From a plasmid, in NCBI RefSeq assembly GCF_988242995.1, contig NZ_OZ547044.1: a stretch of 64,000 nt of DNA, one strand, 5' to 3'. This document shows, in pieces, positions 42,001-45,000 of the stretch. The position numbers were made by a program. How positions within the stretch are numbered: the stretch's first letter is position 1; every line of letters begins with the position of its first letter.

Positions 42001-45000
42001 CCGGATCGGTCTGCTCAACGTCCTGCTCGCTGAAGGGCTCAATCTGGGCCTGCGTAAGATGGCGGAAGCTACAAACACGCATGATTACTGGCAGCTCTCA
42101 CGCCTTGCCCGCTGGCATGTTGAAAGCGAAGCCATGAACCAGGCATTGGCAATTGTGGTGGCCGCGCAGGGTAAACTGCCGATGTCACGCGTCTGGGGGA
42201 TGGGCACGTCAGCATCGAGCGATGGTCAGTTTTTCCCGACAGCGCGGCATGGCGAAGTCATGAACATGGTCAATGCCAAATATGGTTCTGTTCCCGGCCT
42301 CAAAGCGTATACTCACGTAAGCGACCAGTTCGCGCCATTCGCTTGTCAGTCGATCCCGGCGACCGTGAGCGAGGCACCGTATATTCTCGATGGACTACTG
42401 ATGAACGAGGTCGGTCGCCATGTTCGCGAACAGTATGCCGATACAGCAGGATTCACCGACCATTTGTTCGGAGCCAGTAGCCTGCTCGGCTACAATCTCG
42501 TTCTGCGAATCAGGGATCTGCCATCGAAGCGGTTGTACGTATTTAATCCCGATACGACCCCCAGGGAGTTACGCAAGTTGGTAGGTGGAAAAGCCCGGGA
42601 GGATCTTATCGTTGCGAACTGGCCTGATATTTTCCGTTGTGCCGCGACGATGACCGCTGGCAAAATCAGGCCCAGCCAACTCCTGCGCAAGCTCGCTTCT
42701 TACCCACGACAAAACAACCTTGCAGTTGCGCTTCGTGAAGTTGGTCGTATTGAACGGACCCTTTTCATTATTGAGTGGATCCTGGATACGGACATGCAGC
42801 GGCGTGCTCAGATCGGTCTTAACAAGGGAGAGGCCCACCATGCGCTCAAAAATGCGCTCCGTATCGGGAGGCAGGGGGAAATTCGCGATCGCACGACAGA
42901 GGGGCAGCACTACCGAATCGCTGGGCTCAATTTATTGACTGCGGTGATCATTTACTGGAATACCGTCCATCTTGGTCATGCCGTCACGGAGCGGCGGAAC
43001 GAAGGGTTGGATGTTCCCCCTGAATTTCTTCCCCACATATCCCCATTGGGCTGGGCGCACATTCTACTGACTGGCGAATATCTTTGGCCCAAGGAACCGA
43101 AAGCTTAGGGTGTCATTTCGCCCTCAGCCGGAACCGACCCCTTTAAGTGATACCATTTTAAGCAGTACCACTTAAATGTTACCATCAGGACAAAAAATGT
43201 TCGTTTTTGGTTACCTCCGGGCATCAACATCAGAGCAGGATGCCAGCCGGGCAAAAAATGCACTGAAGGCATTTGCAAACCAACATGGCCACCGTATTGC
43301 TGGCTGGTATATCGATAATGTCTCCGGTACGACAATGAACCGCCCTGAACTGATCAGGCTTCTTGGTGATGCGGAACCTGGTGATGTGATCCTCATTGAA
43401 CAGGTCGACAGGCTTACTCGCCTCGATGATGCTGGCTGGGAGACACTAAGAAAGCAAATTACCGACAAGCAGCTGGCCATCGTCAGTCTTGATCTACCGA
43501 CCAGCCATCTGGCGCTATCCAGCACAGTAAGTGATGACTTTACCCGAAGCATGCTGAAGGCCGTAAATGGAATGCTGCTGGATATGCTGGCCGCTATTGC
43601 CCGAAAAGATTACGAAGATCGTCGACGTCGTCAGTCAGAGGGAATCAGTAAGGCGAAAGCTGAAGGGAAATACCGGGGCCGGGTGGCTGATGCGCAGAAA
43701 CATGAACTGATACGTACCCTGCGCCTGGTCAACGGAAAATCGCTGCGCGAAACAGCTCGCCTGGCTGGCGTTTCTAAAATGACAGTGATTCGGGTCTGCT
43801 CCAGCGCTGATAAATAACACTTACATCGGGTAGAATTCGTTTGTCCGGTATCAGTATCAGTGATTATCTGAGACAGAGCGGGACTGGCCGAACGACTGAA
43901 AGGCATTTGTGATCTATGAAAATTAATTTATACGGGGAAGGTATGAAAACAGTGTCAGGAGTGTTGGTGTATCTCGCGGTATGTTTTCTGGTATTTACAG
44001 CATGGCTGATCTGCTTTGCGCAGCACGCTCCGTTTCCGGGAGGCGAACAAGCTTTGACTTTAACTTATCTACTTAATGTATTCTTCGTATATTTTTTGAT
44101 GGTACCCTTTATCCACTTCTTTCAGGTAGAGACATATTACAAAGCTTTGATGGGCCTAGCTGATGGTACTGAACATATAATACAGTTCTATGAGGAAGTG
44201 CCTGTCATGTTGATATACCTTTTATCCGCAGGTTTAACTTTGTTCTTTTATTTCATACCCTTAAAACTTTTCTTTAATAAAAAATTAAAATTACAATTAC
44301 AGCAAAAACAAAGGAAAGATATTTAGACGGCTAATACCTGAGATGAATAAGTCAACAACCAACGGATATCCGTCAACGAGATCAGTTTAACCAATTTATT
44401 GAACACTCATAACCCAAATAATCATGCGACTGCGCGCTGCCACGGAAACGCGTAAAAATCAGAACTGAAAGAGGGAAGACGGATGACGGACCAGAAACAC
44501 AATGATGCCTATTCGCGCTGGTTAATTGAATAGGCAGACAGAGAAGAAAAGGAAGAATTCTCGCGTTCGTTCAGCAGACTGAAATGCATCCTGTTAAATA
44601 TCGTGGTGTTCGGTATCATTTCACTGGGCGTTTGCCTGGCTGTTCAGCAGGTGACGCATTGACATCCACCCCGGCACACAGGGCGAGAGCATGAGTTGAT
44701 TTTTTGTTGTTTTTCATGATGAGATAGGTGGCTCGGCCAATGCTGAACAAATTTGAGATCGCATTTTCAGCACACCCCTGTACAAAATACGAGCAGAAAA
44801 TGCAATTGCACCTTGGGATGACAGTGGTTAAATTTTTTTGGTTAACATGTCAGTAACTCATGCTCTCGCCCTGAGTTCGCACCTTCCGCTACTTCGACAG
44901 TTGTGTAAAAAACCGTGCTCGTTGATAACCAGAAGGTGCGGTACTGAAAAACTATTGCTTGCAACAATTTGCTCAAACGTCACTATGGCTTTTCATGGTT

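Follow-up and report, generated by a model that had tools for sequence, protein, structure and literature searches.

The perfect inverted repeats at 44679-44873 of the window, by which we mean the whole 64,000-nucleotide stretch of plasmid contig NZ_OZ547044.1 (assembly GCF_988242995.1), are very probably the terminal inverted repeats (IRs) of an Aeromonas miniature inverted-repeat element (MITE) of 195 bp that forms the left module of ISKpn31 in pKpQIL-type KPC plasmids, and they are very probably unconnected in function with the serine recombinase gene upstream. On this reading the 195-bp unit, of Aeromonas origin, is a transposon scar and no DNA switch. ISKpn31 itself is already known, and has reportedly been described by Partridge (2014, J Clin Microbiol 52:4448) as an insertion that carries p019 and is host to Tn4401a in pKpQIL. 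What is added here, a three-part reading of the element together with its Aeromonas origin, is a small addition.

The Inverted Repeat and Its Surroundings

The repeat is exact. The sequence CAGGGCGAGAGCATGAGTT at 44679-44697 (plus strand) is matched in reverse complement at 44855-44873 by 19 of 19 bases across a spacer of 157 bp, and the arms of the 195-bp unit stretch to 22 nt with 95% complementarity. A search of the 64-kb window at up to three mismatches returned just these two arms, and chance is a poor explanation for them: the mean expectation in dinucleotide shuffles was 0.02 matches, and none of 100 shuffles reached two. The repeat thus stands as originally predicted, as do the features that were said to surround it, namely a TTGACA hexamer (44659-44664), a serine recombinase gene (43197-43817, plus strand) and a DUF305/CopM gene read from the opposite side (44983-45342, minus strand). 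A third, imperfect copy of the terminus, absent from that prediction, lies at 56900-56918 and reads CAGGGCGAGAGCgTGAaca on the minus strand, which brings the terminus copies to three in all, at 44679 (plus), 44873 (minus) and 56918 (minus). This third copy is the key to the structure of the insertion. A match to the 19-mer in a Desulfovibrio MAG (L010), inside a coding sequence and with no second arm, was treated as chance.

Boundaries of the Insertion

An insertion of 12,240 bp (44679-56918) is enclosed by perfect 10-bp target-site duplications, CCCCGGCACA, the left copy at 44669-44678 and an identical 10-mer at 56919-56928, and the left arm of the repeat supplies its outermost base. The 10-mer is present in a single copy in plasmid pCMP234-2 (L003), an empty site that carries neither insertion nor repeat and still has the serine recombinase. 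When 44679-56928 is removed from the window, the remainder differs from pCMP234-2 by 1 mismatch over 771 bp, and similarity to empty-site plasmids breaks exactly at 44678/44679. The TTGACA hexamer is part of the target DNA rather than of the element, and a promoter scan found no -10 partner for it.

The DNA to the left of the insertion invited a further assignment, in which the recombinase, a membrane-protein gene and a GGGG-ended segment at 44635-44672 would make up the right-hand portion of Tn5403. It was rejected: the right IR of Tn5403 ends at 43141 and leaves all that follows to the right outside the transposon. Intact Tn5403 (L006) has IRs of 38-42 bp (GGGGTCGGTTCC...), and no inverted partner that would make 44635-44672 a Tn3-family IR was found in the window and five related loci at up to eight substitutions; the segment bears a resemblance only.

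Nested within the insertion, in the ISKpn31 transposase gene, is Tn4401a, annotated on the minus strand at 46953-56859 with ISKpn6, blaKPC, ISKpn7, tnpA and tnpR, bounded by IRs at 46953-47005 and 56807-56859, and flanked by a 5-bp duplication, TCAAT, at 46948-46952 and 56860-56864. Subtracting Tn4401a and its duplication from the 12,240 bp leaves 2,328 bp.

Three-Part Anatomy of ISKpn31

This 2,328-bp unit is probably ISKpn31, an ISAs1-family insertion sequence (IS) carrying p019/CopM, the identity being drawn from secondary papers and RefSeq product names. RefSeq names the transposase 'ISAs1-like element ISKpn31 family transposase', and secondary papers treat p019 as a passenger gene inside ISKpn31 and place Tn4401a within that insertion. 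Location, transposase, passenger p019 and nested Tn4401a are all the same as in ISKpn31, with no sequence difference, and the left arm of the repeat is its left terminus. Assignment to the ISAs1 family is borne by three features. The restored transposase, of 378 aa, reaches 416 bits with NCBIfam NF033564 transpos_ISAs1 (cutoff 70). The ends, an outer left IR (IRL) of CAGGGCGAGAGCATGAGTT and a right IR (IRR) at 56900-56918 of CAGGGCGAGAGCGTGAACA on the minus strand, are of the CAGGG... type, as are those of a related IS of K. michiganensis (IRL CAGGGCGAGATCGCGAACG; target duplication GTATGTGAGC) and of ISAs12 (target duplications GGATGTAGCT and GCGTCACCAC). Finally, the target duplication is 10 bp long, the size found in these relatives, and has a matching empty site in pCMP234-2.

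From left to right, ISKpn31 consists of the IR-bounded unit (195 bp), a passenger stretch (878 bp) and a core IS (1,255 bp) that has a left IR of its own. The MITE (44679-44873, plus strand) has ISAs1-type termini (CAGGGCGAGAGC...) and no gene. Its left IR (44679-44697) is the outer left terminus of the composite ISKpn31, as the break with the empty site and a second target in a metagenome contig (L015) indicate, and its right IR (44855-44873, minus strand), now internal to ISKpn31, has 15 of its 16 terminal bases in common with the ISKpn31 IRR. The passenger stretch comprises a 77-bp IS21-family-like scrap (44875-44951; 80-86% identity to IS21/istA regions in many plasmids), p019 itself (44983-45342, minus strand), named in RefSeq and recognized as a DUF305/CopM-family metallochaperone (NCBIfam CopM, 123 bits; cutoff 90), and a fragment resembling ISAs4, an IS5-family element of Aeromonas (45457-45745, minus strand; 88-94% identity to ISAs4 in A. 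salmonicida plasmids), which is cut off by the core IS. The left part of the core IS (45752-46952, plus strand) starts with an IRL, CAGGGCAAGATCGCGAACG, at 45752, enters the transposase gene at 45846 and is interrupted by Tn4401a; the right part (56865-56918, plus strand) consists of the final 30 bp of that gene and the right IR, and is 91% identical to the right end of ISAs12. The core IRL agrees with the IRR at 18 of 23 bases, counted from the sequences; alignments of unrelated ISAs1-family ISs begin at 45751/45752, and similarity to ISAs4 stops at 45745. Six bases, ACGCCC at 45746-45751, separate that scrap from the core IRL and find no place in the reading proposed here.

Copies of the MITE Outside the Plasmid

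The 195-bp unit contains no open reading frame (ORF) of at least 50 aa, and an Rfam search of 44200-45500 at E values up to 1 gave no matches. Further copies, which a check proposed with the original prediction had called for, are present in Aeromonas popoffii, on contigs 44 and 77, with differing flanks and roughly 90-93% identity to the window copy; both ends are present in these copies, and p019 does not adjoin them. The copy in L009 is near full length (3-197). The copy in L008 (contig 44, 8518-8674) measures 157 bp, is flanked by a 10-bp duplication of its own, GCCCATTCGC, and splits a lipoprotein ORF; on its removal an 81-aa lipoprotein-like ORF is regained. Together with the outer arm in the window, which is a transposition end bordered by a 10-bp duplication, these copies uphold the miniature-element reading. 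Independent copies recovered thus number two in A. popoffii and two on metagenome contigs, the latter linked to p019, a lower bound given that the scan was for the exact 19-mer in one genome per species. In the window, the MITE lies between CCCCGGCACA and AGTTCGCACC and lacks a separate target duplication; only ISKpn31 as a whole is so flanked, and for this reason the arrival of the MITE here is beyond reconstruction.

When the plasmid collection was searched with the 195-bp unit by sensitive blastn, every match was at least 95% identical, and hence no diverged relative of the MITE turned up in that collection. The MITE has its terminal 12-16 bp in common with the ISKpn31 IRR, with ISAs12 and with the K. 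michiganensis IS; no full-length IS bearing the 19-bp sequence at both ends came to light. Derivation of the MITE from the core IS or ISAs12 by internal deletion was tested and is not claimed, local alignments being similar only in the terminal ~16 bp.

The two metagenome contigs place the components in other arrangements. From 44679 on, the sequence of L015 (OCVT010045359.1) agrees with the window at 99.9% identity, but its left target is different, the left flank being 99.1% identical to a 7.2-kb plasmid of Aeromonas caviae that runs uninterrupted past the junction. Read from these sequences, the L015 insertion suggests that p019 may be able to move independently of KPC and that the MITE end may still be competent. 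In L014, p019 lies beside an intact ISAs4-like transposase (305 aa) without the core IS, and similarity to the window stops at 45745.

Alternative Explanations

The original prediction had offered two readings of the repeat, and while that of a miniature element has held, that of an invertible or cruciform-forming segment, with its implied tie to the serine recombinase, has not. A recombinase (43197-43817) that flips the 157-bp spacer and so works an on/off switch is a natural thought where perfect IRs surround a short segment 0.86 kb downstream of such a gene, the more so as the best NCBIfam match of the protein is an invertase family, albeit at 50 bits against a cutoff of 272. The hin/hix and gin/gix systems and Mpi-type shufflons likewise have short IRs enclosing a small segment, with a serine recombinase gene nearby, but the likeness is superficial: here only one orientation has been observed, the recombinase exists independently of the repeat, and the arms are the ends of a transposon with a target duplication. 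The gene is backbone DNA, and it and its neighbour are found with identical flanks in plasmids that have no repeat (L003, the empty site, and L002); conversely, the repeats occur without the recombinase in A. popoffii, where the 195-bp unit sits in unrelated contexts, and in L015. A search for both spacer orientations, taken at 80% of the length or more, found the native form in 318 and the inverted form in 0 of 358 plasmid records, assemblies in which low-frequency inversion in culture would be invisible. Moreover, the promoter scan found no promoter-like site within or beside the segment. We therefore regard such a switch as extremely improbable.

A hairpin in RNA or DNA, serving termination or mRNA stabilization between the convergent genes and notably at the 3' end of p019, has somewhat more in its favor and is still improbable. 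The MITE lies ~110 bp downstream of the p019 stop codon, the literature ranks p019 with the most highly expressed genes on a pKpQIL-like plasmid, and folding of 44650-44990, a check proposed earlier, does form the 19-bp stem intact on the p019-sense strand with a z-score of -4.65 that none of 100 shuffles equalled (-2.27 on the plus strand). A long stem, however, comes automatically with a perfect IR; the loop here spans 157 nt, no U-tract follows the stem, a terminator scan was negative at the repeat and the region has no Rfam family. The evidence of mobility accounts for the repeat, to which an effect on transcripts would be secondary. It could also be argued that there is no independent MITE, only the ISKpn31 IRL and an internal copy that arose by chance or by local duplication. 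The 195-bp unit does occur in all plasmid records solely within ISKpn31, and ISAs12 offers a parallel in that its terminus recurs internally in inverted form, 225 bp in from the left, and delimits a module never found alone: in 18 plasmid records that module matched at full length and 100% identity, and none among the matches listed differed from the embedded copy. Against this stand the A. popoffii units with both ends, other flanks and no adjoining p019, one of them within an ORF and with its own 10-bp duplication, which make the absence of an independent MITE very improbable.

Relation to Known Systems

A close parallel to the MITE-ended ISKpn31 is ISAs12, an ISAs1-family IS of Aeromonas that shares 91% identity with the core IS between 45793 and the right end. 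It too makes 10-bp target duplications and possesses an IR-bounded left module, of 225 bp, the outer repeat of which serves as IRL. In ISAs12, by contrast, there is no passenger DNA: the module directly adjoins the core, whose own IRL has been lost, and the interior of the module is unrelated to the 195-bp MITE. Compared by description, MITEAeca1 and MITEAeme1 (206 bp, ISfinder) are likewise short, gene-free, IR-bounded elements of Aeromonas, from which the 195-bp unit differs in size. MITEAeca1 is carried by pFBAOT6. ISKpn31 further resembles transporter ISs and MITE- or IS-bounded composite transposons, in that one transposase and two ends would have moved a passenger with a single target duplication; whereas composite transposons are bounded by two IS copies or two MITEs, the ends of ISKpn31 are a MITE and a complete IS.

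Proposed Origin and Significance

From these junctions we infer an order of events that would begin in an Aeromonas-like ancestor with the MITE, p019 and an ISAs4-like element adjacent to one another. There the core IS would have inserted into the ISAs4-like element, whereupon its DDE transposase may have paired the outer repeat of the MITE (44679) with the right repeat of the core (56918) and carried the whole of the DNA from one to the other into the IncFII(K) backbone, duplicating the 10 bp CCCCGGCACA. It is this duplication alone that points to the ISKpn31 transposase having acted on the MITE end. In the last step, Tn4401a with blaKPC would have entered the transposase gene, giving rise to the TCAAT duplication. 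A plausible though tentative extension, to which we would not quite commit, is that Aeromonas ISAs1-family ISs repeatedly adopt a MITE-like surrogate left end, of 195 bp in ISKpn31 and 225 bp in ISAs12, and that a distant MITE may thereby turn such an IS into a gene-carrying transporter; the copper-chaperone-like gene p019 may have left Aeromonas in this way to become a blaKPC-linked MALDI-TOF marker, with the MITE end perhaps competent even now.

For basic biology these findings carry little weight, as neither MITEs nor transporter ISs nor ISKpn31 are new. They do dispose of a tempting but wrong reading, that of a recombinase-driven switch beside blaKPC. They also bear on the use of p019 as an 11,109-Da MALDI-TOF surrogate marker for KPC plasmids, the tie of which to Tn4401a is a historical accident only: p019 belongs to an Aeromonas-derived mobile unit whose same left end has been used elsewhere at least once, and marker and resistance gene are thus separable. 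Furthermore, the three-part anatomy supplies exact junction sequences for following this lineage.

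Plasmid setting and the repeat

The window is a pKpQIL-type blaKPC plasmid, and the 351 bp surrounding the 19-bp repeats are 100% identical to pKpQIL and are found in 358 plasmid records, mostly from Klebsiella. More precisely, it is a pKpQIL derivative heavily remodelled by IS26; seven full-length copies (10366-11446, 15775-16593, 18657-19475, 22077-22895, 25081-25900, 39381-40200 and 61000-61818) and one 262-bp partial copy lie within the 64 kb. Locally, the gene order runs from IS26 (39381-40200) through a Tn5403 copy without its left end (tnpA 40211-43108), a serine recombinase gene (43197-43817) and a small membrane-protein gene (43916-44326) to the repeats, which are followed by a DUF305/CopM gene on the minus strand (p019, 44983-45342), an ISAs1-family transposase gene, and Tn4401a carrying ISKpn6, blaKPC and ISKpn7. 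The repeat is exactly as the original prediction described it: the 19-mer at 44679-44697 is perfectly reverse-complemented at 44855-44873 across 157 bp, and no further match with up to three mismatches occurs in the 64 kb (chance expectation 0.02).

The left arm as the boundary of a larger insertion

Plasmids of E. coli and K. quasipneumoniae that gave partial BLAST matches agree with the window up to 44678 and then continue with GTCCGCTGAAGG..., which the window also contains, at 56929. The left junction reads ...CCCCGGCACA followed by CAGGGCGAGAGCATGAGTT..., and the right junction reads ...GTTCACGCTCTCGCCCTG, CCCCGGCACA and GTCCGCTGAAGG... in succession; removal of 44679-56928 leaves a 771-bp sequence with one mismatch to plasmid pCMP234-2. 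Given these junctions and this empty-site match, 44679-56918 is a single insertion of 12,240 bp; its terminal inverted repeats (IRs; CAGGGCGAGAGCaTGAgtt and CAGGGCGAGAGCgTGAaca) are imperfect, its 10-bp target duplication is perfect, and the left arm of the 19-bp repeat marks its boundary. Tn4401a is nested within it, with IRs at 46953 and 56859 and TCAAT on both sides (46948-46952 and 56860-56864). Without Tn4401a and one of the TCAAT copies, the insertion shrinks to 2,328 bp and its transposase gene again encodes an uninterrupted protein of 378 aa, clearly of the ISAs1 family (416 bits; cutoff 70). On the basis of the RefSeq gene name ("ISAs1-like element ISKpn31 family transposase") and secondary papers, the larger element is the already known ISKpn31; published papers list p019 as its passenger gene, and citing papers credit Partridge (2014) with the observation that Tn4401 lies "within another insertion" in pKpQIL.

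Composition of ISKpn31

ISKpn31 consists of the 195-bp repeat unit (44679-44873), an 878-bp passenger stretch (44874-45751) holding an IS21-like scrap, p019 (CopM family at 123 bits; cutoff 90) and the remnant of an ISAs4-like IS5-family element of Aeromonas, and a 1,255-bp core IS (45752-46952 plus 56865-56918). The core has its own left IR, CAGGGCAAGATCGCGAACG, which by manual count agrees with the right IR in 18 of 23 bases, and alignments of other ISAs1-family ISs begin at 45751/45752. A relative in K. michiganensis measures 1,256 bp (IRL CAGGGCGAGATCGCGAACG, IRR CAGGGCGAGAGCGTGAACA) and has a 10-bp duplication, GTATGTGAGC; the closest named relative is ISAs12 of Aeromonas, at 91% identity.

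Judged from its copies elsewhere, the 195-bp unit is a miniature inverted-repeat element (MITE), one of the readings originally proposed. The suggested search for further copies, carried out as an exact 19-mer scan of one genome per species, led to two contigs of Aeromonas popoffii CIP 105493. The first carries a near-full-length copy whose right-hand flank is unlike the window's, and the second a copy of 157 bp, whose left end carries a deletion, between 10-bp direct repeats (GCCCATTCGC); once this copy and one of the repeats are taken out, a lipoprotein-like ORF of 81 aa is whole again. From 44679 through p019, a metagenome contig (L015) matches the window at 99.9% identity, but its left flank shows 99.1% identity to an Aeromonas caviae plasmid of 7.2 kb whose own sequence crosses the junction uninterrupted; the same outer repeat has thus been used for transposition into a second target. 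Similarity of the MITE to the core IS, the K. michiganensis IS and ISAs12 is confined to its terminal 12-16 bp. In an Alteromonadaceae MAG (L011, about 60-131), a unit of ~70 bp combines an end of the core type on the left (CACGGCAAGGTCACGAACGTTTATTGAAC) with the exact 19-mer on the right and is flanked by the near-identical CCCCTCAA and CCCCTTCAA; it may be an ultra-short MITE relative outside Aeromonas.

In a second metagenome contig (L014), the same MITE-p019 segment adjoins an intact 305-aa ISAs4-like transposase, and homology to the window stops at 45745, at most 6 bp from the core IS, as expected if the core IS inserted into that ISAs4-like element. Six bases of neither element, ACGCCC (45746-45751), separate the end of ISAs4-like homology from the core's CAGGG. 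The MITE of L014 (1-420) is without its left 19-bp arm: it breaks off at TGATTTTTTG, where unrelated DNA adjoins. Divergence from the window amounts to ~10% in the ISAs4-like part, whereas MITE-p019 is nearly identical, a pattern that suggests exchange between ISAs4 copies.

Alternative roles of the repeat

The original prediction also allowed for a small invertible segment, with an implied link to the nearby recombinase, and this reading proved wrong. When an artificial allele with the spacer inverted was searched against the plasmid collection, none of 358 records matched it over at least 80% and all matched the flanks only (64% coverage), whereas 318 records aligned with the native allele without a break, almost all of them at 100% identity; these records largely descend from one insertion and assemblies show the majority orientation only, such that a rare inversion would escape. 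Nor does the supposed link between recombinase and repeat hold, as the former occurs without the latter in pCMP234-2 and the latter without the former in Aeromonas and L015.

As to RNA or regulatory roles, Rfam gave no family match. The TTGACA upstream of the left repeat is present, but it has no promoter partner, and no promoter-like site was found in 44300-45500. Folding, another check originally suggested, predicts that the p019-strand transcript keeps a long stem (z = -4.65). No terminator-like site was found at the repeat. Since p019 is highly expressed according to a published report, this predicted stem makes an effect on p019 mRNA 3' ends possible, though it would be a by-product.

The serine recombinase and Tn5403

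An intact copy of Tn5403, on the E. coli plasmid pKpQIL-571, carries tnpR and tnpA as a divergent pair between 42-nt IRs (GGGGTCGGTTCCGGCTGAGGGCG...). In the window, the Tn5403 right IR ends at 43141, just upstream of the serine recombinase gene; with its start at 43197, the gene lies beyond the transposon, which rules it out as a part of Tn5403 and places it in the backbone DNA into which Tn5403 inserted. The recombinase falls far under every NCBIfam cutoff (best match 50 bits against 272). Plasmid pCMP234-2 (about 990-1010; compare window 43104-43146) has the uninterrupted site GTGACCATTTAAGTGATACC, so the insertion point is TTTAA; TACCA motifs recur in the DNA around it, which may be where the recombinase itself binds. 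The window holds two Tn5403 copies, 99.9% identical: one complete, with both IRs and tnpR (31879-35542), the other (40201-43141) stripped of IRL, tnpR and res by IS26. The complete copy has unlike 5-bp flanks, TATTC and ATGTC, which suggests recombination between copies, not simple insertion.

Beside the repeat, a 38-bp sequence at 44635-44672 with a GGGG end (GGGGTGGATGTCAATGCGTCACCTGCTGAACAGCCAGG, minus strand) resembles a Tn3-family terminal IR; searches of the window and of related loci gave no inverted partner for it. Its last four bases fall within the ISKpn31 target duplication. In E. coli, a chromosomal copy of this backbone segment (L002, 5990-6010) is without ~70 bp seen in window 44573-44650, where they are flanked by two direct repeats, GTTCAGCAG; this looks like a slippage-type deletion variant.

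Proposed history and recurrence

The end points of ISKpn31's history are established, and between them we infer the following order. The MITE, p019 and an ISAs4-like element would have stood side by side in an Aeromonas-like replicon, and the core IS would have interrupted the ISAs4-like element. With the outer repeat of the MITE as one end and the right repeat of the core as the other, the transposase would then have transferred all 2,328 bp to the IncFII(K) backbone, after which Tn4401a would have interrupted the transposase gene. For an element already known, the MITE identity of the left module and its origin in Aeromonas would be small additions. ISAs12 (1373-2813 and 1273-2712 of two loci, L012 and L007) has a comparable layout: its left end comes from a 225-bp module whose two ends are copies of the IS terminus in inverted orientation, found only together with ISAs12 and never alone, and the transposase-bearing body that follows is without a left IR of its own. 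Two ISAs12 copies have different 10-bp duplications round the whole 1,441 bp. By analogy, taking over a MITE-like left end may be recurrent in this ISAs1-family subgroup.
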